Part shown: piece after piece, positions 10,721 through 61,494 of the stretch
How the letters are laid out: every line of letters starts with the position of its first letter
How positions within the stretch are numbered: the first letter of the stretch is position 1
NCBI GenBank assembly: GCA_043739785.1
Contig: JAYUDN010000001.1
Coordinates: 37,392-101,391, forward strand
Source of the DNA: Candidatus Altimarinota bacterium
GTDB taxonomy: Bacteria; Patescibacteriota; Gracilibacteria; BD1-5; UBA2023
DNA: 64,000 bases
Direction of reading: 5' to 3'
Notes under the pieces: model-generated
What the model saw: the letters and a program-made list of their open reading frames with translations, nothing else
Database searches by the model: none
What the model was told of the DNA's origin: nothing
Made by a program: the position numbers and the translations under genes

Positions 10721-11119
10721 ATGAATAATATCTCTAATATAGGGTATCGATGGAGTTTCTGATGAGATAAAGACCTCGCAGAAATACTTCTTAGACTTGT
10801 CTTATGTGGTATGAAAACGGCTACCACATGACTCTATTTGGAAGATGAGCCCATATGAAAAATAGGGGAGTATGCAGTAGTATATGATGAATTCACGGGA
10901 AAAGATCTTTGCGTGATACAGTATACGAATGTCGAAGTACTGCCATTTCTCAGTGTCCCATATGAGTATATAAAAAAAGAATGAGAGTGAGATACAAGTG
11001 TAGAAAGTTGGAGAGTATCACATAGGGATTTCTATAAAAGAGAGTATTGAGATCAATTCGATGATACCTCACTGGTGTTATGCGAGGAATTCAGACTTGT
11101 AAAAAATTTAATAATTTAA
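10721..11119 (+). CDS. ASCH domain protein
   Basis: WSF(G)(G)D ... GMKTAT ... E(G)E(G)D motifs. Seven in-frame TGAs in 132 codons, including TGAs at 10982 and 10988 inside EGEGD. Confidence 0.8.
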
Positions 11120-11121
11120 CT

Positions 11122-11703
11122 ATGGAACGAGAACTCGTCTTTTCTATCCTGGCTTTTCTGATTACGCTATGGAGCACTATAGTAATGTGGAGGTGAATCT
11201 TTCGTGGGGAAATTATTCCGCACCCTTTTACTTTCTTCATCTGGGTTATCGTTCTATGAATCAGCTCAATGGAATTGATACAAAACCACGAAATTTTCTG
11301 ATCCCTCGGAATTCTACTTATGACAGTGAGTAATATATGAGCTTGCATATTTGGTGTATCTCAGTGGAAATCAATATCAATAAACTGGATGGATTGGTTT
11401 TTTCTTTTTTCTGGCATTTTCCTCATCACTTTCTGGAGACTAGAACCGAACTACGCTTATGTACTTGCAGTGATGCTCGCGATCGATGCCACTGCTTATG
11501 CCTCGAGTTTCAAGAAAACTTGGATACAACCCTTTACCGAGAAATCAGCTCCTTACTTTATCTCTGTCGGAAATAATATTTGTACGATTCTGGCAATCTT
11601 TGTCTGGAATTTCGAGAACCTCGGAATGTGGATATGGACGGCTTGTATCAACCTCATTTTCGCTTGTTTTATCCTCTGGAGGCAATATTATGTGAGGAAA
11701 TAA
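11122..11703 (+). CDS. Integral membrane protein, paralog A
   Basis: 193 aa, multi-TM, four in-frame TGAs. Shares R(G)..(I/L)PHPF(T/S)(F/Y)F(I/V)W and KK.W..P..E motifs with the next gene. Confidence 0.55.
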
Positions 11704-11705
11704 CT

Positions 11706-12305
11706 ATGGAAAAAGAACTTTTTTTTGCACTCATCAGTATATTTTTTTACATTATATGAACGGTTCCCTATTTCCGTGACGTTTTACGATGACGAACTCT
11801 TCCTCATCCATTCTCCTATTTTGTATGGTTTATCCTGACTGGATTTAATACTCTCGTACTTCTCTGGCAAAAGGAATATATCTCCCTCATTCCCGCGTTA
11901 CTCAATACACTATCAAATATTATTTTTACAATGTACGGCATAAAGAGCTTTCGAAAGATTCAGATAAACTATTTCGATTATATTTTTCTTGTCTGAGCAT
12001 TACTGCTCCTTCCTTTTTATTTTTACACACAAAATGTATTTTTGACGGTTATACTGAGTATAGGAATAGATTTTTTAGGTTTTTTATCTACCCTCAAGAA
12101 ATGATGGAATCAACCTTGGAGTGAGACACTTTTTACCTTCCTAGTTATTGGATTGTCTCAACTCCTTATATTATTTACGCAATGAACAGTAATTTTAGAA
12201 TCTTCAGCATTTTGGATATACGTCTTTTTTGTGAATATAATTTTTATTAGCATTGTCGGATTTCGTCGCTATTATCTCAAGGGATGGAAATCTATCTTCG
12301 AATAA
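11706..12305 (+). CDS. Integral membrane protein, paralog B
   Basis: 199 aa, multi-TM. Starts 2 nt after paralog A and has the same motif layout. Confidence 0.55.
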
Positions 12306-12351
12306 TTTTTACCCCATAAATTTTGAATTTGTTTCAGGAAGACACTTAATT

Positions 12352-13485
12352 ATGTCCTACGATCAGTTTGCTACCACATTCTCGAAGAGTCGGAAACACC
12401 ATCCTTGGCCAGAATTGGACGCTATTATTTCCGATATCCAATCCGAGGGATATATGAGGGTGCTTGATGTCGGGTGCGGTAACGGAAGGCTCCTCGAAGA
12501 GTGGTTCAAAAGAAGCGAAGCAAAACAAGGTTTGAATTGAGAACAAGAAAACCCCCCGTCGAAGGGGGGCAGGGGGATACGGGGTTGGTATGCTAACTCG
12601 AATCAAGCTATTCCGTATGATAGAAAACTCCTGGAAAAAGCGAAAGAAAATAGAAAATCTGGAAATCCAGTAGAAAATGCTTTTTGGTTTACTATTCTGA
12701 AATCTGAATCTCTTAAAAAATATAAGTTTACTCGACAGAAGCCACTTCTGACTTATGTAGTTGATTTTTATTGTTCCGAACTCTGATTGATTATCGAGCT
12801 CGATGGGGACTCTCATACTACTCAGATTTTATATGATCAAAAAAGAACCGAGGAACTAGAAAAGTACTGACTTTTTATCCTCAGATTTTCGAATCAAGAT
12901 GTGATGTTGCGGCCAGAGTGAGTATTAGAGAATCTACTTGAATGCATTCGACAGAGAGAAAGTTACCCCCCTCCCCCCCTTGGAAGGGGGGTATCACACC
13001 CATATACTTGAAATTGAAAAGAAGCTTTAGATATTACATATCTCTGAATCGATAATTCAGTCGGGATGATTAATGAAGCTAGAAAATGCCATCCTGGATA
13101 TGATTTCCGAGTTATTGAAATGGCTCAACTTGAAAACTTGAAAACTTGAAAACTTGAAAACTATGACGCTATAGTCTTGTTGGCATCTTTCCATCACCTC
13201 GAAACCGAAGCAGAGCGACTGACCGTATTGTCATCGCTTCGGAAAATGCTTTCACCACACGGACGAATCTATATGACGAACTGGAACCTGCTCGGGCAGC
13301 CTCGATATGAAAAAAGTCACCGAGGAAATGGCGACTTCGATATCAAGATCGGGGAATACATTCGATACTACCATAGTTTCCAGATCGAAGAGCTCCAGAC
13401 ACTTTTCGAAAAATCTGGATTCAGTATTCGAGAACATAGAATATTTGAAGGAGGAAAAAATATTTTCTCTATCGTAGGATTATAG
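12352..13485 (+). CDS. Class I SAM-dependent methyltransferase carrying an in-frame DUF559 endonuclease cassette
   Basis: Motif I VLDVGCGNGRLL lies upstream and LGIDNSVGMINEARK plus LLASFHHL downstream. One uninterrupted code-25 frame covers 377 codons. 12253..12540 and 13177..13485 are in the same frame (924 nt apart). Confidence 0.7.
12541..12995 (+). mobile_element. DUF559 (Vsr-like endonuclease fold) cassette with GC-rich hairpin ends, inserted in frame
   Basis: IPYDRKLLEKAKENRK...AFW..L......YKFTRQKPLLTYVVDFYCSEL(G)LIIELDGDSH...YDQKRTEELEKY(G)LFILRFSNQDV. Flanked by cccccc-gtcgaa-gggggg (12552..12569) and cccccc-ttggaa-gggggg (12974..12991). Confidence 0.7.
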
Positions 13486-14838
13486 ATCCAGAAGCTCACA
13501 CTCTACCTTTTCGATGACGGTATCATCGACCTCCATTACCCGAAGGACGAGTTTGATTTCCGCTCCAGCAAAGACGACTTCCGTTCCCACCATAGGGAAT
13601 TCTTCTTGTTCCGCCATGATGATATACGAAATAGGCTCTCCGATGTAGTCACTGGCGACATTTGCATCTTCGGCTGTGATATTGTACTCTTCGAGGATAT
13701 CGTCGATGAGCATATTCCCGACGGCTTCTATTTTTCCATTGGCGCGTTTTTTGATATAGATTTCTTCCTTATCCTTCTCATCTTTGATATCACCGAATAC
13801 TTCTTCAAGGATATCTTCCATCGTGACGACCCCTGCAGTTCCTCAGTGTTCGTCGAGGACAACGGCGATATGGCGGTGCGACTTCTGGAATTTCTCGAAG
13901 AGATCATCGAGGGGTTGGGTAACCGGCACCTTCATAATCTTCTCGAGATCAAGCGTACTGAGGAGAGATTTCCCATGTCCTTCTCGAGAGAGTTTGAACG
14001 CCTCTCGAAAGGTGATCACATTTTCGACGTCATCACTATTTTCCCCACAGACGGGAAGTCTCGAGTGAGAAGAACTCATGAGGAATTCGCAAGCCTCATC
14101 GATCGTCATATCGAGGTCGAGGAATTCGACATTGACCCGAGGCGTCATAACCGATTCGGCATCAATATCAGAAAGAGCGAGGAGGTTCTTGATCTGGCGT
14201 CGTTCATCCGCTTCGACGGCTCATCCCGTGTGGGACATATCGATAAAGGCATTAAATTCCTCACCACTCACTTTTTTCGAATGCATTTCGAGGGGTTTCC
14301 CTGATATGACGGAAACGAGCTTCATAAGGCCATCGACGAGGAGCGAAATTGGTCGAAAGAGAAAAAAGATACCTCGATAGAGCGGAGCGACGAGGAGAGC
14401 AATGTTCTCAGGAATCGTAATCCCGACGATTTTAGGCCCGATTTCCCCGAGAAAGAGAATTAATAAACTTGAAGCTATTTCCATAAGCGTAATCACCTGT
14501 TCGTGGTCATAGGCAGATTTTTCCGCAAAGTGAATCGCCAGGAAGGTCGCGATCGAAGAGGCTCAGATCGTCGTAAGGGTTGTACCGATGAGGTTGGTTA
14601 CGAGGAGGGCTTCCCCTTTTTTACGGAGGATGGAGAGTGACTTTGCCCCAAATCTTTTTTGTTTGAGAAAAGCCTGTATCTTATATTCACTCACCGAAAG
14701 GAGTGGAAACTCCGTACCTGCAAAAAAAGCAAGGAGACTCAGAAGCAGTAAAAATCAAAGCAGTAAGGGAATCGGATCCACAGGGTGCGAATTAAGGATT
14801 AGGAATGAAGATGGAAGAACTGCGATACGTTCAAGCAT
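13480..14838 (-). CDS. DUF21-CBS-CorC_HlyC family protein (CorC/TlyC-like transporter-associated)
   Basis: 13480.., 13843.. and 14221.. are in frame. VVLDEH(G)GTAGVVTMEDILEEVFGDI, a CBS pair and N-terminal TM helices. The start is ATG 14838, or possibly GTG 14781. Confidence 0.8.
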
Positions 14839-15195
14839 GCTTCATCCCGTAGTTTCAACATGGATTCATTTCTATAGGAGTGAAATGAATCTCTATCTGA
14901 GCCGGATTATATGAATATGTCACAAAAAATCAAAACTATGTCATTCTACTCCTGAGCTGAGGAACCATTCTAAAAAGAGAACAGATAAGCCGAGAAAGTC
15001 GAAAAATCTATCTTTGTTTTAGTCTATCAGATTCTAGGAAGGAAAGCAAGATAATTAGGAAGGATAGAGTAGAACAAGGCTTGATCCTTCCCATGAAACA
15101 AGTTTAGAGTCAGAATGTCAAAGCATTCATCTTATTCAGGTGGGTAGACTATATCGGTAAGTATTTTGGGATTTGGAATATGCGCAAGAAATCAC

Positions 15196-18100
15196 CTATT
15201 TCCCTATGGTGATCGATTTCCCTGCAGTGCGACCGAATACCTCTGGGTGGTAGAATTCTCCGATACGAGAAGGTCGAAGTTCGTAGGTTCAGACATGTGT
15301 GGGTCGGTAAATATACGTGAAGGTATAAATACCCGCATCGAGCCGTGCGACGGTACCGAAGTATCGATCATCCTGCCACTCCTCATGGTCGAAGAGAGGA
15401 TTCATCGTTTTACGAGAAGTGGGTGCACCATCAGAATACATACCATCGCTTGATGGAGTTGTATTTGCGGTCGAAGTATTCACTACATCTTGAGACTCCG
15501 TCTTGAGATTCGGATTCACGAGCTCAGCCCCAGCTGGGATAAATCCTTCAAACGCGACCTGATCACGAGGCTCTGCAGCGATCATACGGTTATACACGAT
15601 GACGAGTTTTCCAACCTTCGGGGAGGTGAGAGGAGTGAGGTAGGTGGTGATATCTTTCGGATATTTGAGTTCAGTAAAGAGGATATCTCCTTTGAGGTAT
15701 TGAGCCCATTCTGTAGCCTTAGCCTTCTCTATAGCCTGATACTCAGCATAGTCATAGGAGGTTGATTCGAGAAAGAATCCTTCATCTCGGGCAGGAATCC
15801 CGCTCGCCTTCAGCGCATAGGTCATGGAAATATCGTAGTAAATCCGACCCGTTCCTGTTTTCTGGAATTGGAACTGTGAGACATCCTGGAGATTCGAAAG
15901 TAAGAATCCAGTGGAGAAGGTTTCGAGTCGATTCGAACCATCGATAGTCTTTTTCTCGAGCAGGTTTCCGTCGAGAGAAAGTGTAGATTCAAGCTTCGTA
16001 TTCCGAATATCCCCAGTTGCTCGTTCCATCGTAGTTATCGATCGGATGACGTCCATCGTATCGAGGGTAGACCCAAAACTTCCGTCTTTTTTCTTCTGAC
16101 TCATAACCCACCGACTCATCTGGTCGAGTACGGTTCGATTTTCGGAGAGGGTATCACCACCCAAGAGGGTCACGAGCTCGACAAAGCTCAGGGTATTGGT
16201 CAGTCGAGAAGAACTATCAGATCGTCCGATAAAGGATCCTCGAGGATTGATAACAACTCCTTCGCTGCTGATTTTTTTGACCGTATCTTTTGCTTGATTG
16301 AGAAGCGATTTTTTATCCTTCTCAGCCACCGCATTGAGTGTGGTCAGCTTCACCAGGAGGTGGGCATGGGCGAGCGAGAAATCGACCCCCCGATCATAGA
16401 CCTCCTGAGTGTTCGTGAGGTACCATCCATTTGCCATATTTTTGGTATCGCTTACAAGGAGTTGGTACATCTTGTAGGCTTCATAGTCATCTGGTGTGGC
16501 ATCGAGGACTCAGGCAATCATCTCGAGCCGCTCAGGGACTGAGTAACCACAGTTGGTGATACAATACGGTCGATTATTCTCATAAAATGTATCCTTGATA
16601 TACTTCGCAGCCTTTGGTAAAACATCTGGTGGAAGCGTGAATCCAACTCGTTTGAGGTCCTGGAGCCGAGATACGACCGTAAGGGTGAGAGGGAGGGATG
16701 ATATTTCAGAGTCTGTCCAGTAACCGAATCCCCCGTCATATCGCTGGTAGGAAGTCACTCCTCCTATCACTTCTTGTATCACATCTTTGAGAGAAACCTC
16801 GGTGTATCAGTCTTCTTTTGAGTTATAGCGCTTCAGCATCTTCGTCGAGAGATCATAGGGGATCCCGATGCTGTCGTAGAGCTCCTTCATATAGACCTGT
16901 GGCATAATAGCGGCGAGTTTCTGCTCGATGCAACCATACGGATAGCTTGCAAGAAAATCCATCCCTGAGAGGAGTCCAGGAAGGAGGGTTCCAGCATAAG
17001 AAATAGCGAGGGATCATCCATTCTCACGGATGGCACGCTCGAGCTCTATGAGTTCAGCTGCTTTGGGGTCGGCTCGACCACTCGTCGCAACCGTTTCACT
17101 GGTTGTTGTCTCGATAATCGGGATTGTCATTTCTATAGTATCTTGATCGCCGGTCGTACGAGAAACGGCTTTGATCGTGATCTTCGAGGCCCAAGTCGAG
17201 AGATTTCGCACTTTTTCGATGGAGTCAACTACGAGTTCAAATGGCACCACGACTTGAGCTCAGGCCTTGATTTCGACTGATTTTTTTGGGCTCTGAATTG
17301 TGACATGGTTAGCCTCGACCGTGATATCAAAGGTGGCATCTTTTTCTGTCTTATTGAATACAACCGGAGCTATTACTACAGTGTCTGCGGTCCCGAGGAA
17401 TCTCGGAAGGTTATCATTGATAAGGACACTTTTCGAAGTCTGGATCTGAGTAGTACCAACACCGAACTGATTCTTTTTGGTATTGATCAAGGCTTCGATC
17501 ACCCACGTCGTGAGGTTATCTGGAAGGACGGGCGTCGTGATAGTGAAATTTCCACTCTGATCCGTCGTGAAGTCCGATTGCCAGAACGCTGTATCCTTGA
17601 ATACTCAACGTTTCTTTTTCGAGAGTCCTCATTTTTGTCCATCACCGGCTCCTCATTTTTCTCCGAGTGATGTATCCTTTACTTCGAGTTTTTCGACGAG
17701 GTTGAGGAGAGAAGTATAGGTGATGACTCCGAGGTACCGCTTCATGTCGTAGAAGTAGGCAAATGGATTCTTGAGTGGATTCCCAGCGAGCGCGAGGAGG
17801 CTCTCATCGACGATCGAGAGACTTCCATTGGCTCATGCGAGTACTTTCCCTGCCGCATCTTTCACATTCACGGTAATCTTCACGGGTTCTCCAGGAAGAT
17901 ATTTTGACTTCGAAGCACTTACGGTTACAGCGAGTTTTTTCGGATCCGGGAGTACTTTGACGACGGCGAGTGCCCGCTTGTAGATCGGGAGTTTTTCTCA
18001 TGGATTCTGCCCAAGAGCAAAGACTTTGACATAGACATTTGGGATATAGGTATCGAGTATCGGGAACTCGATGCGTACGGTCGTGCCGGTGATATCCTGG

Positions 18101-28187: not shown

Positions 28188-28952
28188 ATGTGGAATATCG
28201 CCCTCAATACCTTCCGTGAGATCATACGCAATAAGTTTTTCTCCTTGATTGTCTTCTTCGGAGTTGTATTTCTCCTGATTTCTCTCCTCCTGAGAACCCT
28301 GGCCCTTGGGGAAATCGAGCGAATGCTCTATGACTTCGGGCTTTCCTTCATCGAACTCACCGGGCTCTTCGTCGTCCTGTTTCTTGGAGGCGGGATGCTC
28401 TACCGAGAGATCGAAGGACGCACGATCTATCTCCTCCTTTCGAAACCGATTCGTCGGTCGTCGATCCTCATCGGGAAATTTTTCGGGTTTGCGATGATTC
28501 TCGGGCTCATCACCCTCTTTCTCTTCGCTATATTCTACGGACTCATCGTCGGGAACGGATTCACCTTCGACTCGATGGCATATATGGCGGTACTCGGGAT
28601 CTACCTGAAGCTTCTCTCGCTCCTCGCCGTGATTCTCTTTTTCTCGACGGTGGCGTCTCCGATCCTCTCGATGTTTTGTACGATAGCCACCTACTTTATC
28701 GGACACAATGCATACGCGATTCTTGACTTCTCCGCTCGAAAGGGGAGTGTATTTTTCGAATGGATGGGTCGTATTACGATCACCCTCTTTCCGAATCTCG
28801 AAGCCCTCAACCTGAAGAACTATGTTGCGACGGGGATACCATTTGATATAAGGTATTGGTCTCTCGGATATGCAACCGCAGTCCTCTATATCATCGTGAT
28901 CCTCTACCTCGGAGTGCTTCTCTTCAATAAGAAATCATTCGATACGGTGTAG
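28188..28952 (+). CDS. ABC-2 type transporter permease-like membrane protein
   Basis: 254 aa with six predicted TM helices and a NosY/ABC-2-like N-terminus MWNIALNTFREIIRNKFF. No cognate ATPase lies nearby. Confidence 0.55.
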   Translation: MWNIALNTFREIIRNKFFSLIVFFGVVFLLISLLLRTLALGEIERMLYDFGLSFIELTGLFVVLFLGGGMLYREIEGRTIYLLLSKPIRRSSILIGKFFGFAMILGLITLFLFAIFYGLIVGNGFTFDSMAYMAVLGIYLKLLSLLAVILFFSTVASPILSMFCTIATYFIGHNAYAILDFSARKGSVFFEWMGRITITLFPNLEALNLKNYVATGIPFDIRYWSLGYATAVLYIIVILYLGVLLFNKKSFDTV

Positions 28953-29074: not shown

Positions 29075-29755
29075 ATGCATTCCACAGATCCTCATTATCC
29101 CATCGAATACACGCTCTGAGAGGTCGAGTTTTTTGGACGGAAATTCCGAGTGACGCCTGATGTATTGATTCCTCGTCTCGAGACCGAGTGACTCGTTCGA
29201 CGAGCTCGCACCCTCCTCCAAAAATCCAATAATCTAAGCACTCAAAAAACCACCATTATTGATATTGGCACCGGTTCATGAATCATCGGGGTGAGTCTTG
29301 CTGATCTCGCGGAGGAAGTGATATTTCTCGATATTTCCGAAAAGGCCCTTGAAGTAGCTCGAAAAAACTTTCGTACTCATTTTCCGAATAAAAAAGCAAA
29401 GTTTCTCCTATCAGACCTCCTTTCCAATATACCAATATACCAATATACCAATATTCTCCTTGTCGCCAACCTCCCCTATATCAAAGCCGATGACTGGGAA
29501 CATATGAGCGAAGACACTCGATATGAACCGGAACTCGCCCTCTTCGGCGGAGAACACACCGGATTCGAACTCTACGAGAGGCTCTTCGAGCAACTTTCAA
29601 CTTTCAACTTGCAACCTGTAACGGTTATGATCGAATTCGGGTTTGATCAACGAGTCATAGCAGAAGAAACCCTAAAGAAATATGGTTGGAAGTATGCATT
29701 TTTTACTGACTATGCAGGCATAGAACGATTCGCGGAAATTAATATTGACTTATAA
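29075..29755 (+). CDS. prmC: Release-factor glutamine methyltransferase (HemK/PrmC-like), short form
   Basis: FRVTPDVLIPRLETE(G)LV, GTGS(G)IIG and VANLPYI (NLPY in place of NPPY), with a TGA at 29279 inside the GxGxG SAM motif. The N-terminal helical domain is absent. Confidence 0.75.
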
Positions 29756-29795: not shown

Positions 29796-30314
29796 ATGGC
29801 TACCGAGTTTCAAAACGTTTATACAGATATATCACTTGATCTTTGTAGGAGTTATAGTGAATCAATGATACGAGATATTAATAGTCTTATAGAGGAAGTT
29901 TCAGTGATTGAAACATTTGTTAAATTTTCGAAACAAGAACCTTTACAATGGCTAACTGTACAGAGAGTATTTGAGATTCTCAATACCTCTAGATTTCAAA
30001 GTTTATTCAGTCTTTTGTCTCGGTGAACTGAATCTGAAATATACCAATTTCTCCCGAGTCTCGCAACAAGTATACAAGCAAGTAATGAAACCCTAGATGA
30101 GGATGTAAATAGAGGTTACCTTTTGAGAGAGATAGGTTATTTTCTTAAAGTACTAAATACCGCCACACTTATTTCCCTTAGAGAAAAGGTCGAGCAATGA
30201 AGCATTTCAGATGAAGACATGCGGATCTACCTCGAGTGATCTCGCCAAAGAACAGCAAGATTAAGAAAACAAGTGACATGGAAAGTAGATAAATATAGTT
30301 TTAAATTGAGTTAA
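29796..30314 (+). CDS. Hypothetical protein (172 aa)
   Basis: ATG ORF with three in-frame TGAs, followed by a strong terminator. Confidence 0.4.
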
Positions 30315-30347
30315 AAAAATCCCTTCCAAACTGGAAGGGATTTTTTT
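30314..30347. terminator. Bidirectional rho-independent terminator
   Basis: aaaaaatcccttcc-aaact-ggaagggatttttt. Confidence 0.7.
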
Positions 30348-30350
30348 GAA

Positions 30351-30455
30351 ATCCACTTGAATACTACTCTCACGACCTTCGACGGATCAACTGCAGTTCC
30401 TTCGATGGTCGTGAGAGAGATGTGGTAGCCAAGGAGGTTTTTGTTTGTGACTCAC
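30351..30455 (-). pseudogene. Diverged duplicate of the nusA 3' end
   Basis: The minus strand reads ..LLGYHISLTTIEGTAVDPSK.., compared with the nusA C-terminus ..LLGYRISLTTIEGTEVDPTK.. at 33207..33290. Roughly 80 percent nt identity by eye. Confidence 0.65.
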
Positions 30456-30574
30456 ATCAATCAAGGACAGAACGAAGAATTCCCGGTTATGAAACAACAG
30501 TCTATGAGGAGCGTGAGTTTGTGCGGATTCAGTACTACACAATGGCTACCAGAAATCCACCTGATTCAGAGAGA

Positions 30575-32908
30575 CTACCGATATTGGGAAGCAAGTTCTT
30601 CAAGGGCTTCTAGTTTTAGAAGAACATATGTTTTTTTATTCATTGTCGCTCGTTTCGTGTTTTCTTGTAGCCAAGCTTTTGAGCTATTTTTTAAAGTGGT
30701 TCTTTTGAGAACTTCGTATTTAAGTGGAGCATATTTTGACTCGATTAAGGCTCGGTATTCTTCACCAATAGCCTGGTAAGGTATCCCGGATATTGTTATA
30801 ATACCATTTTCGTTTATTTCCTCATCGATTAGAGAAACTTTTGTATTGATTTCAGCAAGTAACTCTCCAATCTTGCTTACACGTATGGCTCTTCATTTTA
30901 TTCCAGTTTGGGTGTTAAAAAATGGAATACTAAGTTTATCTTTCAGACCCGCTCTCATTGAATGATTCAGATATTGATTATTCTTTCCGTACGTATTTTC
31001 AATATAGTGAATATACCTATTGTCTAATACGTAATACCGTTCTCCTTTAAACGCAAATAATCCGTTTTCATCGATTGCATCAGCATGTACTAAAGACTTT
31101 ACACTCATTTTATCTATTAGAACACTTATAGAGCAAAACTGATACCTTTCTCATTCTTGGGACTGTCATACTTTTAGGTGGTCTTGAGATGCCTTTAGGT
31201 GGTTTTGTAGTCTTTGGAGTCACTCCAACTCAATACTAGCATATCATCTTCAGAGAAGTTCTATCAGTTCTCTGTCGAAGTCCGGATGAATTGCCTGAAA
31301 AGGTACTCATCATATAGTGCCAACACCATTTTTATTTATTTCTACAGATACAATATCTTCCATTACCTCATAACCAGAGAGTGTAAGATTATTAAGCATA
31401 ACCTCTCCTAGCTCATGCATCATCTCAAATGCATTCATTATACCACCTACTCGCTTACTACCATCTCAAGATACTTTAGTATTCGTAGAACCACTATTGG
31501 GGCTGGTTCATCTACTCTGTGCATCTGGTGGAGGAGTCAGTACATCCCATGACCGAGGAGCCATATAGAGTGTATTACTTGTATTTTTTGGAGGATATTT
31601 TTTTAGGTCTTGGGCACTCAAGGAACGCATAATTCGTCACATCAGCTGTATACTCTTGGCCGGAGACATAATCGCACATCACTGCAAATAACATCGAAGG
31701 GTCCTGACATCCCATCACTCTGCGACTTGTTGTACCGTTATAACCAGATCAATACTTCTATCCTGTATTCCTTTTTTTGCTTCGCGTGCGTCCATACCTT
31801 TTTTATACTTTCCATTTCCACTTGTCACGCGTACGGCTTTTACTCACTTTGATAGAGCAAGCTGAGTCACACTCTCAGCGTGTTCTATACTTCTACAAGC
31901 GTATATGCCAAGAAGATAATTATCTTGAGCCTTTTTCTCCTCAACGTACTCATCTATAAGCACTTCATCGAAAACCTTACCATCTTCATCAAAGTATCGA
32001 TATTTTTCATAGTCTTTTGTCGTGTCGTCATCATTGGGGCGGGTAGCATACGCATGACCGAGCAGCCGAGCCGTCGGAAGTATCAGAGTTCCATCATTGA
32101 CCGCGTCTTGAATTTTTCCCATATAAAATGGACGGGCGTATTCGAGTACATTTTTATTGGTAAGTCCAGGAGTAGCCGTAAAGTAAAGGTGAAGTTTTTT
32201 CTTGGCAATTTCTGAGATAATGGCTTCAGCTTTATCAATCTCAGATCCATCTTCAGACTCGGTGTCTTCCTCGGAAAGTGAAGTAAAGTGAGATTGAGTT
32301 TTTTCTCATAAACTCTTATGTCACTCATCAGATATGATACAATTTACCTGAGCAAAGATACTTTTAAGTACACCAAAATGAGACTTCGCAAGCTGATTGA
32401 ATCCATGGTAGGTAAGTATGATTACACCATTTGTATTCGATTGCATAAAATGGGGTATTCACTGAATCTGTTCTCATAGACTCCCATCACTTTCAGATGA
32501 TAGGCAAAATACCTCTCATTCGCTATACCCGACACCTGACTTCTCTTCGTTTCCTACGAGTTCATCTCGAGTATTACTTATAAGAGGAATATTGGGAACG
32601 AGAATGACATTGTTTCATCCGAGGGCTCTAAGTATTTTTCAGAAGAGATAGGTTTTTCCTACTCAGATGGCCAACTTCGCCAGTCCTGTACGATATCAAG
32701 ATTGTACTCAATCTATGATTCCACCAAGAGCATCATTTTGCTGTCCACGAAAAGAAATATCCTCATCACTCAGTTTCTGTAACTTCGCCACTTCTGATGG
32801 TATATCAGGCTGGGAAAGAATATCTGTAACTTTTCCACTATTGTCATTTGTGGGTAATCATAGGGCGGGGGGTGCATCAGGGCTGACCGATGGTTCTTCA
32901 GTATGCAT
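30575..32908 (-). CDS. SF2 (DEAD/DEAH-box, type III restriction res-like) helicase, 777 aa
   Basis: Motif I LAI(G)VGKTY, motif II IISDE(G)H, motif III TATPG, motif VI QLM(G)RIMR. More than 30 in-frame TGAs, so only 2 fragments (30893.., 31844..) appear in the standard-code track. Confidence 0.7.
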
Positions 32909-33156
32909 GGAAATAATTAAGTTACCTATATATAATAATATTATTATAACATATATATGTAAATATACAAATACTTCTAGTCACATCTAATTTCTACTTC
33001 TGCAGTTAGTCTACATTTTTGAAGTATCAAAAGGTTCTGTACTCATCTAAAGCCGGAGAATAATATCTTGTGACAAGCACAGAATAGGAGTCTATTAACT
33101 CTAAACAACATGAGTAAAATCAGTTTTCCTTGCCTTCAGTGATGAGTGTACATTAT

Positions 33157-33190
33157 AAAATCTCCTTCCAGATTAGAAGGGGATTTTTTT
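33157..33190 (-). terminator. Terminator downstream of nusA
   Basis: aaaatctccttc / gaaggggatttt hairpin with flanking A/T runs; homologous to the hairpin at 30314..30347. Confidence 0.55.
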
Positions 33191-33206
33191 GAAATCTATT
33201 TGTTTA

Positions 33207-34289
33207 CTACTCTCCTTCTTTCGTCGGATCCACTTCAGTTCCTTCGATGGTGGTGAGGGAGATGCGGTACCCGAGGAGGTCACCCGCGATGTTAATATTG
33301 GTCCCGCCTCGTCCAAGGACTTTCGCCTTTTCTTCATCCTTCACCGTTGCGCGGATGATATTATTCTCTTCATCGATTTCGATCTTTTCGACCGTTCCTG
33401 GGATGAGGGCTCGGCGAACCATTTCTTCTTGATTCGTCGTATAGTTGATGATATCGATCTTTTCCCCGAAGAGTTCATCGACGATATTGCGTACGCGCAT
33501 CCCCTTCGGTCCGATGAGACATCCAGCTGGGTCGACATCTTCCTCATCACTCGCGACGATGATCTTCGTCTTCACTCCCGGCATGCGGGCGATCGAGACA
33601 ATCTCGACGGTCCCTTCCTCGAGTTCTGGGGTATTCATCTCGAAGAGCTTCACGACGAGTTCCTTGTCTTTGCGAGAGAGGATGACGCGAGGTCCATTGA
33701 TTGGATCATTCTCTACCTTGCGTACATAGAGGTGCATACGCTGTCCAGGAGCGTATTTGTCTTTCGAGATCTGCTCACTCTTCGGGAGGATGACCTGGTT
33801 GCCATTGTATTCGAATACGACACGATTCTTCTCGACAAGCTCGACTCGGAGTGAGATAATCGTATCTTCCTTATCCTTGAAGAGGTGGTAGATTTTCTCT
33901 TTTTCAGTTTCTTGGATTTTCTGGACGATCACCTGTTTCGCGGCCTGCGCGGCGATACGACCGAATCCTTCCGAAGCGAGGACTTCGTCAGAGACGTCGA
34001 TTTCGACGGTATCTCCGATACTAAATCCGCTATCTTCACCGATATCTTCGAGGGATATTTCGACATCTGGATTTTCGACGGTTTCGACTACGGTTTTTTC
34101 GACCGATATTTCGAAGGTCCCAGCAGCAATATCCATATGGACACTGACATTGGCTTCTTTACTCGCGTAGTCTTTCTTATATGCGGTTTCGATCGCACGC
34201 TCGATGATGTCGAGGAGGCGTTCTTTCGGGATTTTCTTTTCAGCCGATATTTGGTTGATCGCGGCTTCGATCTTCTGGAGGTCAAACAT
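33207..34289 (-). CDS. nusA: Transcription termination/antitermination factor NusA
   Basis: N-terminal domain MFDLQKIEAAINQISAEKKIPKE, then S1 and two KH domains. The start is placed at Met59 of track ORF 33207..34463 because the upstream part is a translated repeat array. Confidence 0.85.
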   Translation of the reverse strand: MFDLQKIEAAINQISAEKKIPKERLLDIIERAIETAYKKDYASKEANVSVHMDIAAGTFEISVEKTVVETVENPDVEISLEDIGEDSGFSIGDTVEIDVSDEVLASEGFGRIAAQAAKQVIVQKIQETEKEKIYHLFKDKEDTIISLRVELVEKNRVVFEYNGNQVILPKSEQISKDKYAPGQRMHLYVRKVENDPINGPRVILSRKDKELVVKLFEMNTPELEEGTVEIVSIARMPGVKTKIIVASDEEDVDPAGCLIGPKGMRVRNIVDELFGEKIDIINYTTNQEEMVRRALIPGTVEKIEIDEENNIIRATVKDEEKAKVLGRGGTNINIAGDLLGYRISLTTIEGTEVDPTKEGE

Positions 34290-34560
34290 AGAGGGGGAGG
34301 GGTTAAGAATTAGCTGGTTAGCAGGTTTGTTGGGAGGTTGGGATGGGAGAAGGGTAGAGACGGTAGAAACGATCGAACGGTAGAGACGGGGGGCTGGTTT
34401 GCTGATTAGCTGGGAAGGAGAGAAGCTGGTTGGTGGGGAGAGGAGTTTCCATCCCCCTTCCAAGGGGGGCAGGGGGTAAAAAAAGAAGAGTAGAAAAGTA
34501 AAGAGAGAAACCTTATAGTACGGTCATTCCCGTGAAAACGGGAATCTAAATGAAACTTCA
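34290..34560. repeat. Intergenic mosaic repeat array B
   Basis: gctggt/ggtagag words, GC hairpin tccatcccccttccaaggggggcagggggt (34447..34480) and gtcattcccgtgaaaacgggaatc (34523..34546). Confidence 0.8.
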
Positions 34561-35485: not shown

Positions 35486-36685
35486 ATGGACTGGAATAAA
35501 TTTCTCAACATTCTCCTCTTTACGATCGCTTTTACCATCATCTTTCAGTGGGTCATGGGACCGAAAGCCAAGACCGATCTGGCGACGACCAATACGGTCT
35601 ACCTTCAGGTCAAGAAAAGTAGTACCGTCATCCCGAATATCCCGATTGTCGACATCGTCAATACGACGATGACCGGTACCATCATCGAAACCTGTCGAGA
35701 CGTGAAGATTTTCATCGACTCGAACCCACTCACGAACCTCGAGACCGAAGCACCAAAATTTTGTACTTCACTCACCGTGCCATCCGGTGGGCAGTCCCTT
35801 CTCCCGCTCGGTGCCCTGGCAAAAGCCTTCGCTGAGAGACCAGGAACCTATATCATCAGGCTTACGGTCGGAACTGAAGAAAAAATAGTGACGATCACTC
35901 ATTCATCTCCGAGTACGATACGATCACTCCTTTCCACGATCGTCTTCGAGCCGATCTACAATTTCTTCATCGCCCTCATCTCCTTCCTTCCGAGCCATAA
36001 CCTCGGGTGGGCGATTATCATTATCACCCTCATCATCCGCCTGATCCTTCTCTACCCACAGAACAAGATGCTCGTGAGTCAAAAGAAACTCCAAGTCATC
36101 CAGCCAAAGATCAAAGCGCTTCAAGAAAAACACAAGGGAGACCAGACCACCCTCGGGATGGAAATGATGGCGCTCTATAAGAAAGAGGGAGTGAATCCTA
36201 TGGGTTCTTGCCTTCCCCTTCTTATCCAGATGCCGATCCTGATCGGACTCTATTGGGTCGTCTCCGGGGTCAATGATCCAGCGAATTTCTACCACCTCTA
36301 CTCGTATTTCAAAGACTTCGATATTTCTACTGTCAATTCGCATTTCTACGGACTCAATCTAACTACAGTAGGTGGCTTGGTCGGGGGAATATTTGCCATA
36401 ATACTTGGTCTCATTCAATGGGTGCAGGCGAAACTATCGTTTACCTACAATCCTCCTGCGAAAAAAGAAAGCGCAAAGGTCATCGAAAAGACTGAAGATG
36501 GAGCCTACCAGGCCCCAGATCTCGCTATGGATCCCGCTATGATGCAGAAGATGATGCTTTATATGCTTCCCGTCATGATTGCGACTTCTTCCTTCTTTTT
36601 CCCACTCGGGGTCGGACTCTACTGGTTTATCGGGACACTTTTCGTCATCGCCCAACAGGCGTATGTGAACCATAAGGGGAAGTAG
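35486..36685 (+). CDS. yidC: Membrane protein insertase YidC
   Basis: 399 aa with LYPQNKMLVSQKKLQVIQPKIKALQEKHKGD...MALYKKEGVNPMGSCLPLLIQMPI. Confidence 0.9.
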   Translation: MDWNKFLNILLFTIAFTIIFQWVMGPKAKTDLATTNTVYLQVKKSSTVIPNIPIVDIVNTTMTGTIIETCRDVKIFIDSNPLTNLETEAPKFCTSLTVPSGGQSLLPLGALAKAFAERPGTYIIRLTVGTEEKIVTITHSSPSTIRSLLSTIVFEPIYNFFIALISFLPSHNLGWAIIIITLIIRLILLYPQNKMLVSQKKLQVIQPKIKALQEKHKGDQTTLGMEMMALYKKEGVNPMGSCLPLLIQMPILIGLYWVVSGVNDPANFYHLYSYFKDFDISTVNSHFYGLNLTTVGGLVGGIFAIILGLIQWVQAKLSFTYNPPAKKESAKVIEKTEDGAYQAPDLAMDPAMMQKMMLYMLPVMIATSSFFFPLGVGLYWFIGTLFVIAQQAYVNHKGK

Positions 36686-37480
36686 AAAGTTAGAATAGGA
36701 GGTAGCTGGTAAGCTGGGATGGGAGAAAAAGGGAGAAGAGTGGAAAAGGAGAAAGCTGATTCGCTGGTAAGAAAGTTGGAAAGGAAAAATAGTAGGATAA
36801 CTCGAGAGGAGGAATGGGTAAGATGATGCAAGGGTAAAAGAAAAAAAACGAGTTTTTGTCATTCCGACCGAAACGACCATAGGAAGTGAAGTGGAGGAAT
36901 CCCTTTTCACATTAAGAAGATAAAATCATACTGAAACCAAGGGATCCCTCGATTCCGGCTATCTCCTCCACTCGGGATGACAACGGTGAGAGAAGAGTAG
37001 AAGAGCGTAAAAGTAGAAGAGTAGAAGAGCGAATGGGGGTCTCTATCCCCCTTCCAAGGGGGACAAGGGGGTAGGGTATAAGGAAGTTTGGTGTCATTCC
37101 GACCGAAGTGACAGAGGGGAAAGCGCCACGAGAATTCCATTGTTACTTTGTCATTCCCGTGAAAACGGGAATCCAGCAAATAAGAAACTGGATCCCCGCA
37201 TGCGCGAGGATGACAACCAAAAGAAGTAGAAAAGAGGAAAGGGAGAGAACTTAGAAACGATGGGAAGGTGGATGAGAGTTTTTTGAATCCCCCTTCCAAG
37301 AGGGACTAAGGGGAGTAGGGTATAAGGAAGTAAAAAAGGAGAAGAGTAGAAAAGTAGAATTGGATAAAGTAAGAACAGCAAGAGCCAAACACGGGAAAAC
37401 CCGAGCACTCCAACTCTCGGAGAGATGATCACATTGAAAAGAGAGAAGAAAGTCATATAATACGCCACTCATACACATCT
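36686..37480. repeat. Intergenic mosaic repeat array C (about 0.8 kb, largest in the window)
   Basis: Modules: M3 36858..36903, M5 36941..36982, GC hairpins 37031..37086 and 37280..37330, M3 37093..37138, M1-M2 composite 37150..37215, plus gtagaag and gctggt word tracts. Confidence 0.85.
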
Positions 37481-39249: not shown

Positions 39250-40578
39250 ATGCCATCTCTTACTCTTTCTCACAATCCACATCATGACCTAGTATGACAT
39301 ATAGAACTATATGGCGGAAAGCTGGGTTCTCTCGAGTTTATAAAAAAACTGTATTTGGATCATCCTGAAGAGTTCGATGAAACTGGTATTAAAGTCTGAC
39401 CACAATATACTCCCACTATCATACCAGGCGGATGAAGTATGACGGAGGATGACTTTGCAGCTTTCATGAATAAACATCATCTTGCTGAATGGTCTGAGAT
39501 TATGGTTCGCGTAAGTGTTCCTGGAGACTATAGGAGTCTTGTAGACACAATGCCGACCAAATCACTCAATATCTCCCCGATAGAGTACTGGAAAGATTTG
39601 CCTGACGGTTCTCGTGATTTACTCTTCGAGCCAGAGTGAGCCACACGCATAGTGACTCCTTGCGACAAAGTCAATGAAGTGTGCCGGCAAATAAGAGGTC
39701 GTGTGGAGGAAATAAAATGAGATATTCTGCAGTATGCGAATCTTGCCGGAGTACCATTTAGTATGGATACACTTACGTATGGGGTAGTCCCTCGATTCTC
39801 AAAAGGTCATATCACTGTCACCGAACATCCGAATCTCGATCAAACCTATATCGAGGAACATTTTCAAGAACACTGATATAGGCCTAGTTGAGTGAGGATA
39901 TGAAAACCTGAGGACTATTTCAAGAGTCCACTAGCAAAAGTACAGAAATTCCTCCAGTTTCTCAGAAAAAAATGAGTTCTAGATAAAGAAATTGCATATA
40001 GTTTTGAATTATGAAAAAACGATTCAGATGAACTTATTTTGTTTCAGATTCGTGAACTCTGTCGAAAAGTCCCCACACCATCCCCGGCACTTACTCTCAG
40101 AGGATACAATAATGATTATATAGGAACGATTCTTACGACCATCCCATCTGGAGGATCAAAAATTTTTGAACTTTGCTCCAAATCCAATGATTCTATACAA
40201 ACACCTGTATGAGTCCCACTCTTTGGAGAATTTCGAGGAGGTAGTCTTTCAAGTTTGGATAGCATAACTCTTGATCCGAACAAGTCCGGAATTCTTACTG
40301 AAAGTAATCGAAATCCTACTATTGGTGGTCATGATGTCATGCGACAGGCTCAATATGCACTTCAGAGTCCTGGATGAGGCATTGTAGTACTCTGAGAATT
40401 CTCAGACTGATGCGGCTCATATATCTCTGACATCGAGCGTGATTGTAAGCCAACCCCATCATACGATGAAAATTTATCTCGCGATTACCAAGAATGAAGT
40501 GCAAAACTGGAAGTGATGCACTTTTCGGATTGATATATTGAAATCAAAAAACTGTCCTCATTTAATGGGGAGGACTAG
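39250..40578 (+). CDS. Hypothetical protein (442 aa)
   Basis: A continuous code-25 frame with about 20 in-frame TGAs. Only a 66-aa piece (39439..39639) is visible in the standard-code track. Confidence 0.4.
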
Positions 40579-44681: not shown

Positions 44682-45030
44682 GGAGGTAGAAACGAGGGAA
44701 AGATAGAGACGGAAAAAGGCCGGTAAGCTGGTTTGCTGGTTAGAGGGTTGGAAAATTGGAAAGTGGATGAGTGGAAAAGGTAGAATAAATGAGCTTTTGT
44801 CATCCCGACCGAAATGGAACAAGTTGGAGTGTAATAGAGAAACCCCATTTCTATTTTGTCATTCCCGTGAAAACGGGAATCCAGCAAACAAGAATCTGGA
44901 TCCCCGCATACGCGAGGATGACAAACAAAGGAAGTGGCAGAAGTCTAGAAAGATAGAAAAAATTAGAATATATAACAAGAAAAAACTGAAAAATTTGCCA
45001 AATAAAAATAAATAGAGTATGATTAGTAGG
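44682..45030. repeat. Intergenic mosaic repeat array E
   Basis: ggtagaa/gctggt words, an M3 variant at 44799..44845 and the M1-M2 composite at 44858..44923. Confidence 0.8.
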
Positions 45031-54892: not shown

Positions 54893-55520
54893 GAAGCAGG
54901 TAGATCTTGGTAGATAACAGGTAGAAACGGCAGTAGGTAGAAAGCGAGGAAAATAAGATGAGAAAAGGCTGGTATGCCGTTAGGCTGGTAAGCTGGTATG
55001 GGAGAAACGAATGGAAAAAGGAATAGTAGAGAGATGATAGCAGATAGAATATGGGAAAATGGTAGAAACGGTAGAAGAGGAGAAAAGTAGAAAAGGGAGG
55101 AACGATAGGATTGGTAAAAAATGGATGGGATTTTTTGAATCCCCCTTTCAAGGGCGACTAAGAGGGTAACGGTTCGGAAAGACGATGGGGAGGTAGAAAT
55201 GATGGAATGGTAGAAAAGGTAGAAGCGAAAGAAGTATTTTTTGCGTTATTCCGACCTTAGTGGAATAAAGTAAAATCAAGAGAAGGAATCGTATCCTCAT
55301 TTCGTCATTCCCGTGAAAACGGGAATCCAGCAAATAAGGAACTGGATCCCCGCATACGCGAGGATGACAAAGAGACGAAGGAATGCCTCTCCCGAGTCCT
55401 ATGGATCGGCATGACACAGTATTGTCATTCCGACCGAAACGACCAGAGGAAGTGAAGTGGAGAAATCCCTTTTATTCTCATCCGTCTTGTTCGATAGTTT
55501 TTATCGATTTTCCTTCTATT
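54893..55520. repeat. Intergenic mosaic repeat array G
   Basis: GGTAG at 54888, 54899, 54909, 54920 and 54936; GC hairpin 55141..55182; M1-M2 composite 55304..55369; M3 55424..55468. Confidence 0.85.
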
Positions 55521-61200: not shown

Positions 61201-61494
61201 GGGGAAGTTGAGAAAGTCCGTTATGAGAGAATTCCCGTCATTGCGAGGGACGAAGCAATCCAGACTTCTGAAATCGGAACTGTCTGGATTAATGAAACAC
61301 AATATTTCGGTGATGTACCAGAAATTGCTTGGAATTTCCATATCGGTGGTTATCAGCCAGCACAGAAGTGGCTCAAGGATAGGAAATGACGCATGCTCAC
61401 TTGGGAAGATATCGCCCACTATCAGTCGATGATCGTGGCACTGACTGAGACTGCGAGGGTGATGGGTGAGGTGGATAAGGTTATGGAAGTTTAA
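58246..61494 (+). CDS. Single-chain restriction-modification enzyme (type IIG/IIL or type ISP-related), 1082 aa
   Basis: An N-terminal PD-(D/E)xK-like nuclease domain (GAPDF...YAEAKD) is followed by a gamma-class N6-adenine MTase (motif I ILDPATGTGTFL, motif IV VVGNPPYS at 59743). The C-terminal target-recognition region contains FPRVPYP and WNFHIGGYQPAQKWLKDRK(G)R. About 20 in-frame TGAs. Confidence 0.75.
60212..60251 (-). repeat. GC-hairpin element copy a (reverse orientation), in frame inside the R-M gene
   Basis: The reverse complement, ccaccccgtccttcggacacccctcaatgaggggaatttt, matches copy b. Confidence 0.8.
60827..60869 (+). repeat. GC-hairpin element copy b, in frame inside the R-M gene
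   Basis: ccaccccgtcgctacgcgccacccctcaatgaggggaatttcc; the palindrome cccctcaatgagggg is at 60847..60861. Confidence 0.8.
61061..61088 (+). repeat. GC-hairpin element copy c (short variant), in frame inside the R-M gene
   Basis: ccaccccgagcccctcaagaggggaagt. Confidence 0.65.

Follow-up and report, generated by a model that had tools for sequence, protein, structure and literature searches.

How does an apparently foreign gene come to lie between an essential gene and a dead copy of that gene's own end? The question is raised by a 64,000-nucleotide stretch of the genome of a Candidatus Altimarinota bacterium of the Gracilibacteria (assembly GCA_043739785.1, contig JAYUDN010000001.1, positions 37,392 to 101,391; hereafter the window), in which a gene for a superfamily 2 (SF2) helicase stands beside nusA and is flanked on both sides by a copy of the nusA 3' end with its terminator. 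Gracilibacteria, like other bacteria of the candidate phyla radiation, have tiny genomes and few recognisable mobile elements, and an altered genetic code should limit exchange; gene acquisition in them is poorly documented. The locus described here offers a gain, polarised by phylogeny, of what appears to be one foreign gene of code 25 (UGA read as glycine) beside the essential nusA, with a scar that can still be read and with a second case in another species. An earlier sequence-only reading of these letters had proposed that a 2.8-kb island was inserted at the nusA terminator with target duplication. Here we argue that the insertion is real, that it postdates the split from the sister species, and that homologous recombination, rather than a recombinase carried by the incoming DNA, may well have brought it about.

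A duplicated nusA 3' end flanks the helicase gene

Local alignment of positions 30316-30438 with 33157-33280 gave 104 identities over 122 positions (85%), with three 1-nt gaps and a score of 139; in 300 shuffles the mean score was 18.5 (sd 2.1) and the maximum 26, and a repeat search of the window recovered the same pair. The repeat had first been placed by eye at 30314-30455 and 33157-33300, at about 80% identity, and each copy had been said to contain a terminator hairpin, the motif GAAATC and the last 30 or so codons of nusA. The duplication and its three components survive formal alignment, with the ends moved in to 30438 and 33280, the identity raised to 85% and the tail shortened to 23 codons. 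The similarity extends beyond the hairpin, since a 61-nt coding block is itself 87% identical between the copies.

In the right copy the hairpin occupies 33157-33190 and is separated by a 17-nt spacer, in which GAAATC occurs, from the final 23 codons and stop of nusA (LLGYRISLTTIEGTEVDPTKEGE). The left copy has a hairpin at 30313-30347, a spacer like that of the right copy, and a tail in decay (LLGYHISLTTIEGTAVDPSKVV...), where there are three missense changes and the frame is shifted by a 1-nt indel; its stop is lost and it has no start, so that its original description as a dead fragment is borne out. When the coding changes peculiar to the right copy were compared codon by codon, all of them proved to be synonymous.

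The layout is A-H-X-H-B, in which H is the repeated segment of about 124 bp and X the 2,718 bp between the copies (30439-33156). Homology stops sharply at 30438/30439 and at 33156/33157, and its limit on the nusA side is 33280. The spacer downstream of the helicase gene (30439-30574) shows no homology to the part of nusA upstream of the tail (score 16, shuffle mean 19.6), and the 248 nt past the right hairpin show none to the DNA downstream of nusA in the sister species, L001, or to ORF172, an open reading frame (ORF) of the window that converges on nusA. The longest perfect runs between the copies are 17 nt (GGGATTTTTTTGAAATC) and 16 nt, which fits either a recombination core or chance at 85% identity. 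An assembly artefact is excluded, because two assemblies from other sequencing runs (L062 and L063) have the identical arrangement and are 100% identical across the region.

Relatives carry the empty site

Relatives were drawn from a NusA scan of species-representative genomes, which yielded 54 Gracilibacteria loci; the related contigs are annotated as metagenome-assembled genomes of Candidatus Gracilibacteria. L001 is identified as the sister species by its nusA DNA, which is 89.5% identical to that of the window against at most 81% for all others. The NusA proteins of the two are 98-99% identical, with a nonsynonymous divergence (dN) of 0.005 and a synonymous divergence (dS) of 0.67. In L001, nusA is followed by a single terminator, a 172-aa ORF, prmC, ABC2 and HIT, without a helicase gene or a second tail, and about 12 further species with the nusA...prmC arrangement likewise lack both. 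The empty site is thus present in relatives, and the arrangement of the window is conserved neither in the sister species nor in the others. With an X of 2,718 bp and an empty site in L001, the insertion of roughly 2.8 kb with duplication of its target is upheld. A metagenome scan for closer relatives, or for an empty allele in the same species, returned nothing above 84% NusA identity.

The left copy aligns to the nusA tail of L001 and on through its terminator (L001 11010-11137). The DNA beyond the left copy, which contains ORF172, is in turn homologous to the DNA downstream of nusA in L001 (score 135, shuffle maximum 90); ORF172 itself shares 28% amino acid identity with its positional homologue there. 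Because this adjoining DNA is homologous, it is the left copy that occupies the ancestral context. In a three-way comparison, a spacer between stop and hairpin is common to both copies in the window and missing from L001; in its hairpin the left copy goes with L001, and in its coding sequence the right copy does. The common spacer implies that the copies are each other's closest relatives and that the event was specific to this lineage, and the missense and frameshift changes of the left copy look like neutral decay. On these comparisons we place the insertion after the split from L001. The divergence between the copies, corrected by the Jukes-Cantor formula, is about 0.165; as a rough estimate, if they began identical, the event would lie about a third of the way back to that split.

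The opposite polarity would require the helicase gene and the duplicated tail to be old, with recombination between the repeats having removed them from L001 and the other relatives. Recombination across direct repeats can delete the DNA between them precisely and so restore a clean empty site, and a divergence of about 15% between the copies means that the event was not recent. The losses would, however, have to extend to L001 and to all of the 12 or so other species with the nusA...prmC arrangement, and the spacer common to both copies and missing from L001 puts the duplication after the split. The GC content at third codon positions (GC3) of the helicase gene, 0.30, and its nearest relative, in an organism of 28% GC, indicate foreign origin, and its family is extremely sparse. 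We therefore consider an ancestral arrangement very improbable indeed.

The interval into which X was inserted is variable in its own right. Between nusA and prmC, nearly every species carries one ORF of low GC3 (0.24-0.34) that encodes 113-438 aa and converges on nusA; the set consists of L001, L004, L006-L010, L013, L015, L016, L020 and L023, in all of which the PrmC-like gene is syntenic, and the corresponding slot in the window is 29796-30314. The ORFs in this slot mostly have no detectable homology between species, and the slot is empty in L004 and L015. ORF172 had no family match in Pfam, PADLOC, NCBIfam or PHROG. Its low GC is a property of the slot, which implies that it is not part of the helicase insert. 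We accordingly rejected the whole low-GC block, which reaches past the left repeat on its left side, as the island: ORF172 has a positional homologue in L001, and relatives carry slot ORFs of low GC3. These data mark the nusA-prmC interval as a hotspot of gene turnover.

A second insertion at nusA

The nusA tail of another species, L019 (NusA 82% identical), bears a similar scar. Here positions 10955-11075 are repeated at 14641-14761 (121 nt, about 84% identity) around 3,565 bp of cargo with two co-directional genes, one encoding 431 aa and the other 620 aa with thrombospondin-type repeats; no recombinase was found in this insert. Empty sites are provided by L011 and L014, which are collinear on both sides and in which the next conserved gene begins about 50 nt after nusA. 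The repeated segment of L019 is internal to nusA: the intact gene gains from the insert a novel end of 11 codons and an unrelated hairpin, and the displaced copy still has the canonical C-terminus together with the hairpin canonical for the clade (AAAATCCCCTC...GAGGGGATTTT). A canonical displaced copy beside an intact gene with a novel end is the pattern expected when H is internal to the gene, and L019 resembles a textbook example of Campbell integration by way of a fragment from within a gene.

The 431-aa cargo gene of L019 (11231-12526) shares 38% identity with the gene resident in the L008 slot (11179-12486), which lies in the opposite orientation relative to nusA, implying that related genes circulate through this neighbourhood. 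In L019 a further ORF, of 127 aa (14888-15271, minus strand, GC3 0.26), separates the displaced nusA tail from the conserved gene that comes next; its absence from L011 and L014 points to a separate, earlier gain in the same slot.

No further scars with displaced gene tails were found among 76 loci at the protein level or in a nucleotide self-scan of about 1.0 Mb; both scars in that megabase sit at nusA. Repeats in L031, L071, L073 and L050 were rejected as scars, being intergenic motifs beside collinear, conserved housekeeping genes and resembling repetitive extragenic palindromic sequences (REP) or miniature inverted-repeat transposable elements (MITE). These look-alikes near nusA are 90-124 nt long, for example at L031 11072-11161 and 12850-12940 and at L050 6993-7116, 9184-9307 and 11939-12050.

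The inserts of the window and of L019 have no end motifs in common and no nucleotide similarity. Their duplications measure 123-124 and 121 nt, lie about 85 nt out of register, and have only the LLGYRISLTTIEG..VDP stretch in common. Such closely matched lengths in two independent events raise the possibility that a trans-acting process makes cuts in the two strands at a distance of about 122 nt, ligates foreign DNA there and fills in the gaps. An initial identity of the copies, as this would produce, also fits the lineage-specific states that they share, the decay of the displaced copy and the exclusively synonymous change in the retained one, and long direct repeats are made by some insertion sequences (the IS1634/IS1549 group). 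With two cases only, however, equal length may be coincidence. Neither a transposase nor terminal inverted repeats nor common end sequences accompany the inserts, and there are no other such scars in the megabase scanned. The right hairpin has also diverged beyond what the neutral coding decay of the left copy would lead one to expect, although not significantly. We consider a fixed-length duplication unlikely. A broader proposal can be built on the equal-length duplications with unrelated cargo and on the location of both scars at nusA, namely that the nusA 3' end is a dedicated landing site in Gracilibacteria for cassettes without recombinases, where trans-acting machinery duplicates a fixed segment of about 122 nt and so feeds the slot; this strikes us as equally doubtful.

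The insert contains one gene and no recombinase

The insert of the window consists of 248 nt, the helicase ORF and 136 nt. The helicase is the sole gene between the copies (30575-32908, minus strand), as first read. Six-frame translations of the non-coding parts gave no ORF and no remnant of one, and there is no room for a further gene. No integrase, recombinase or transposase was found in X, where Pfam gives ResIII and Helicase_C only, and the insert has no terminal inverted repeats (score 15, shuffle mean 14.5). The missing integrase and transposase, remarked on in the sequence-only reading, have thus left neither space nor remnants nor element ends. An insertion sequence or transposon was rejected on these grounds, and because the duplication of 123-124 bp lies beyond the usual 2-15 bp. 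No tRNA, tmRNA or Rfam RNA was found near the site; the window has two tRNAs, both distant.

A transposon is not the only element that might have been expected here. A site-specific integrase of the tyrosine type could have acted, through a short core, on an attP that mimicked the nusA 3' end, and have been lost afterwards or supplied in trans. Prophage e14 and phage 21 integrate into the 3' end of icd in Escherichia coli, and islands use an attP that brings a replacement 3' end. The likeness to these cases is considerable: a duplicated 3' segment, about 100-170 bp long, keeps the gene intact, a pseudo-3'-end lies beyond the insert, the flanks are imperfect direct repeats, and relatives have the empty site. 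Gene, replacement 3' end, cargo and displaced native 3' end follow one another as they do in islands that target 3' ends. Moreover, around the identical 17 nt of GGGATTTTTTTGAAATC the right copy combines native-like coding sequence with a diverged hairpin, and the left copy the reverse, a mosaic that would suit a crossover at a core.

The present insert differs from e14 and phage 21, however, in having no integrase, no excisionase and no phage or island backbone; it is a single gene in 2.7 kb. In neither the window nor L019 does the insert hold an integrase, a remnant of one or spare space for one. That the nusA tail has been used twice, independently, would suit an attachment site, but the second event uses a shifted segment: the two H segments overlap only in part, and the inserts have no common arm or end motifs. 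None of the viral contigs scanned carried conserved nusA-tail sequence that could serve as a mimic, and the helicase was not found in IMG/VR. The coding changes in the left copy resemble decay of the lineage's own tail, not a foreign, functional mimic. Part of the helicase family may travel on mobile elements, since a relative of its core, P0004, adjoins a large serine recombinase and a DNA methyltransferase; serine integrases, however, are not known to create long duplications, which counts against an integrase of that class. On balance we hold site-specific integration, the main rival reading, to be rather unlikely.

A proposed homology-driven route to the present arrangement

We lean, with modest confidence, to a homology-driven event that was independent of any recombinase encoded by the element. 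What favours it is the lack of a recombinase, and of the space for a decayed one, in two inserts that are unrelated in cargo and in ends. A foreign X of 2,718 bp, comprising one helicase gene with its own AT-rich upstream region, would have joined the chromosome at the nusA 3' end by recombination anchored on some 125 bp of nusA-tail homology (H). This could have happened by one reciprocal crossover with a circle that bore H (additive integration of the Campbell type), or by one-sided, homology-facilitated illegitimate recombination (HFIR) with linear DNA from a relative, the illegitimate junction falling inside the anchor gene. Either route would produce A-H-X-H-B with the ancestral flank joined to the displaced copy. 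In the product, nusA would keep a working tail with what is now a weaker terminator, the helicase gene would lie co-directionally downstream, and the other copy of H would be stranded as a decaying pseudo-tail that retains the strong ancestral terminator next to ORF172. The enzyme system would be the host's homologous recombination machinery and not a site-specific recombinase. "Target duplication" remains correct as a description, and recombination driven by homology is a likelier cause of it than a staggered cut of the kind made by transposases.

Several observations weigh against this interpretation. A donor with the helicase gene beside nusA was not found, and the sole full-length homologue has a different upstream gene. 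The L008 homologue of the L019 cargo is inverted, which a simple transfer anchored on nusA would not yield. Sliding identity against L001, and of L019 against L011 and L014, revealed no recombination breakpoint in nusA. The perfect runs of only 16-17 nt are short for a RecA-dependent crossover, unless most of the divergence arose after insertion. Homology-driven models do not predict duplications of nearly equal length (121 and 123-124 nt) at different offsets, and the position at nusA of the only two scars in about 1 Mb hints at site preference.

Two known processes resemble the proposed one. In Campbell-type insertion-duplication, exploited in classical insertion-duplication mutagenesis, a circle carrying a chromosomal fragment enters by a single crossover. 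The A-H-X-H-B topology is the same, and so is the outcome when H is internal, as in L019, where the gene is given a new end and the native end stays with the displaced copy. The present event differs in that it would be a natural one and would have required a circle with 125 bp of nusA tail, and in the low identity between the copies (85%).

The second process is 3'-end displacement by HFIR, proposed for the effector-immunity arrays of the type VI secretion system (T6SS) in Vibrio cholerae and for the orphan tips of Rhs and contact-dependent growth inhibition (CDI) loci (PMC5361080; among the HFIR sources cited there are de Vries and Wackernagel, 2002, and Prudhomme et al., 2002). In those loci as in ours, a conserved upstream anchor is followed by new DNA, the old 3' end is orphaned further downstream, there is no recombinase gene, and the same locus is hit again with different cargo. 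The anchor here is nevertheless nusA, a housekeeping transcription factor gene, rather than a polymorphic toxin gene; the nusA tails encode the same peptide instead of alternative toxin tips, cargo and anchor are unrelated, and no donor arrangement was found.

The locus supports the idea that conserved core genes supply the homology by which genes are added in these bacteria. Should the equal lengths of the duplications truly reflect a dedicated mechanism, they would point to an insertion system not yet described. There is a small chance of such a new mechanism; otherwise the locus is a well-documented and unsurprising instance of a known process.

Terminators and predicted expression

The two hairpins differ in predicted strength. 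The right one (33157-33190) has a folding energy of -15.9 kcal/mol, one mismatch in its stem and an interrupted U-tract, and the left one (30313-30347) reaches -24.3 and -26.7 kcal/mol on the two strands. The left stem matches that of L001 (TCCCTTCC...GGAAGGGA), and the right hairpin has diverged from that shared form. A genome-wide repeat was considered as the source of the hairpin and rejected, as its motif (AAATCCCYTC...GARGGGATTT) occurs once in the window. The spacer between the helicase gene and the displaced tail (30439-30574) does not fold significantly (z +0.97).

Upstream of the helicase start lies a candidate sigma-70-like promoter (32963..32935, TTTACA-17-TATTAT), which is a match to the consensus only. 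Because the right hairpin is weaker than the displaced ancestral terminator, the helicase could be expressed by read-through from nusA together with its own candidate promoter. The helicase transcript and that of the convergent ORF172 would then both end at the old nusA/ORF172 terminator, 30313-30347.

The cargo is an SF2 helicase

The helicase matches Pfam ResIII (PF04851) with an E value of 2.8e-12, Helicase_C weakly, and the PHROG family phrog_16, "DNA helicase", with an E value of 4.5e-22. SF2 motifs follow in order: GVGKT at residue 82, DEGH at 194, TATP at 244 and QLMGRIMR at 421. Its assignment to SF2 therefore stands, with the correction that motif II, DEGH, is of the DExH type and not DEAH. 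Like other ResIII-domain SF2 helicases (PF04851; PHROG 16), it has an N-terminal ResIII/DEAD-like domain followed by a Helicase_C-like RecA2 domain, with motifs I, II, III and VI; it differs from them in lacking an adjacent Mod gene or a recognisable nuclease domain, and in a C-terminal region of about 300 aa that is nearly an orphan.

That C-terminal region (residues 440-777, approximately) had no family match. The AlphaFold2 model of the helicase is poor, with a mean predicted local distance difference test score (pLDDT) of 50 and values below 30 in the C-terminal third. Searches against NCBIfam and PDB sequences gave no match, and no PADLOC-DB 2.0 model matched the helicase or ORF172 at E values up to 0.01.

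The in-frame TGA codons are informative about origin. TGA encodes the first glycine of Walker A (GVGKT) and the glycines of motif II (DEGH) and motif VI (QLMGRIMR), and 15 of the 25 in-frame TGA codons align with glycine in the sole full-length homologue. Those 25 codons replace the estimate of more than 30 made at first reading, and their density, 3.2 per 100 codons, is high without being exceptional, since the low-GC gene at 39250-40578 reaches 3.6. Within the window TGA density follows GC3, for which reason we rejected it as a marker of foreignness. The gene at 39250-40578 (plus strand, GC3 0.32, no Pfam match) may also have been acquired.

When 1.84 billion representatives were searched exhaustively with HMMER, only 131 relatives of the helicase were found at E values up to 1e-3. 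All except one match the core only (residues 65-500, approximately), and the C-terminal region of about 300 aa is common to just one of them, P0002. P0002 is encoded, with 42 in-frame TGA codons, on a code-25 contig of 27.6% GC, where the upstream gene is other than nusA; its identity to the helicase falls from 59% in the core to 33% in the C-terminal part. Identity to the L061 homologue is 47%. Near relatives combine the same core with C-termini that differ and are unassigned; nuclease and methylase domains are absent from all of them. The apparent rarity of the family is in part an artefact, because gene callers using code 11 fragment such genes. The core relative P0004, of 1,043 aa, lies directly downstream of a large serine recombinase of 537 aa (L085 3973-8901; L086 2029-6957) and near an N6/N4 DNA methyltransferase; these neighbours suggest that part of the family resides on mobile elements.

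The suggestion that the helicase is native to a code-25 gene pool is upheld by TGA at conserved motif glycines and by the full-length relative on the 27.6%-GC contig, and comparison of these genes supports an origin of the cargo in a foreign code-25 pool of low GC. The proposed classification as defence-associated or Res-like came to nothing, as the gene could be assigned neither to type III restriction nor to a known defence system. No Mod methyltransferase gene adjoins it, its neighbours being nusA on one side and the dead nusA tail and ORF172 on the other; without such a partner the product is not demonstrably a type III Res subunit. The nearby prmC-like gene is a conserved housekeeping gene that is also present in relatives without the helicase. 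From its sequence, the cargo reads as an SF2 DExH-type helicase to which no specific role is assigned, and not as a recognised defence component. An unselected ORF of 2.3 kb would be expected to have gained stops since the event, so the helicase is probably under selection; it is probably functional and has been kept intact since insertion.

Gene map and other features of the window

Code 25 is evident throughout the window, where ORFs of at least 100 aa sum to 51,223 aa with TGA as sense and to 15,956 aa under code 11. The coordinates of the locus are collected in Table 1. The nusA product matches Pfam NusA_N (9e-33) and KH_5 (1.9e-19).

Table 1. Coordinates of the nusA locus and its neighbours within the window
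Feature	Positions	Strand	Remarks
ABC-2 permease	28188-28952	+	
PrmC-like methyltransferase	29075-29755	+	Pfam MTS 5.4e-10; conserved right-hand border of the slot across the clade
ORF172	29796-30314	+	convergent with nusA; GC3 0.25; hypervariable slot gene predating the insert
Ancestral bidirectional terminator	30313-30347		perfect 16-bp stem
Left repeat copy (H)	30316-30438	-	displaced, dead nusA tail with spacer and hairpin
Insert 3' spacer	30439-30574	-	136 nt between helicase stop and displaced nusA tail
SF2 helicase gene	30575-32908	-	777 codons, 25 TGA read as Gly, GC3 0.30
Insert 5' region	32909-33156	-	AT-rich, 248 nt, candidate promoter
Right repeat copy (H)	33157-33280	-	functional nusA end: last 23 codons, stop, spacer and hairpin
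Weakened terminator hairpin	33157-33190	-	between nusA and helicase
nusA	33207-34289	-	360 codons and stop, intact, no in-frame TGA, GC3 0.59
YidC	35486-36685	+	

Two paralogous genes near the start of the window, 2321-4744 (minus strand, 807 aa) and 5847-8465 (minus strand, 872 aa), share a 111-nt stretch at 73% identity. The 872-aa protein matches coupling-protein domains of the VirD4/TraD/TrwB type and HerA-like ATPase domains, and the same P-loop motifs can be seen by eye in the 807-aa protein. The presence of two VirD4/TraD-like ATPase genes is no evidence of competence.

Two further genes encode domains of restriction or modification enzymes. The product of 58246-61494 (plus strand, 1,082 aa) combines N6 DNA methylase, an Eco57I/MmeI-type methyltransferase and Type ISP C-terminal specificity domains (E 3e-80), and so resembles a single-polypeptide restriction-modification enzyme of type IIG/IIL; it lies 27 kb from the helicase gene and has no evident link to it. 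The gene at 12253-13485 (plus strand) encodes a DUF559 endonuclease-like domain (residues 126-232, E 1.3e-27) N-terminal to a class I methyltransferase fold.

The window also contains repeats of other kinds. A perfect 59-nt direct repeat (568-626 and 690-748, spacing 122 nt) has a second copy that spans the first 23 nt of tRNA-Leu(tag) at 726-810, and so places a partial 5' copy of the tRNA gene upstream of the real one. Runs with an 8-nt period resembling GCTGGTTA are intergenic and occur in the nusA leader (34293-34433) and at 36735, 44707, 45892, 50663, 54956 and 56495. Finally, a 91-nt intergenic family with 85-91% identity (37137-37227, 44845-44935 and 55291-55381) forms hairpins (GTCATTCCCGTGAAAACGGGAATCC...GGATCCCCGCATGCGCGAGGATGAC) and has a REP/MITE-like look.

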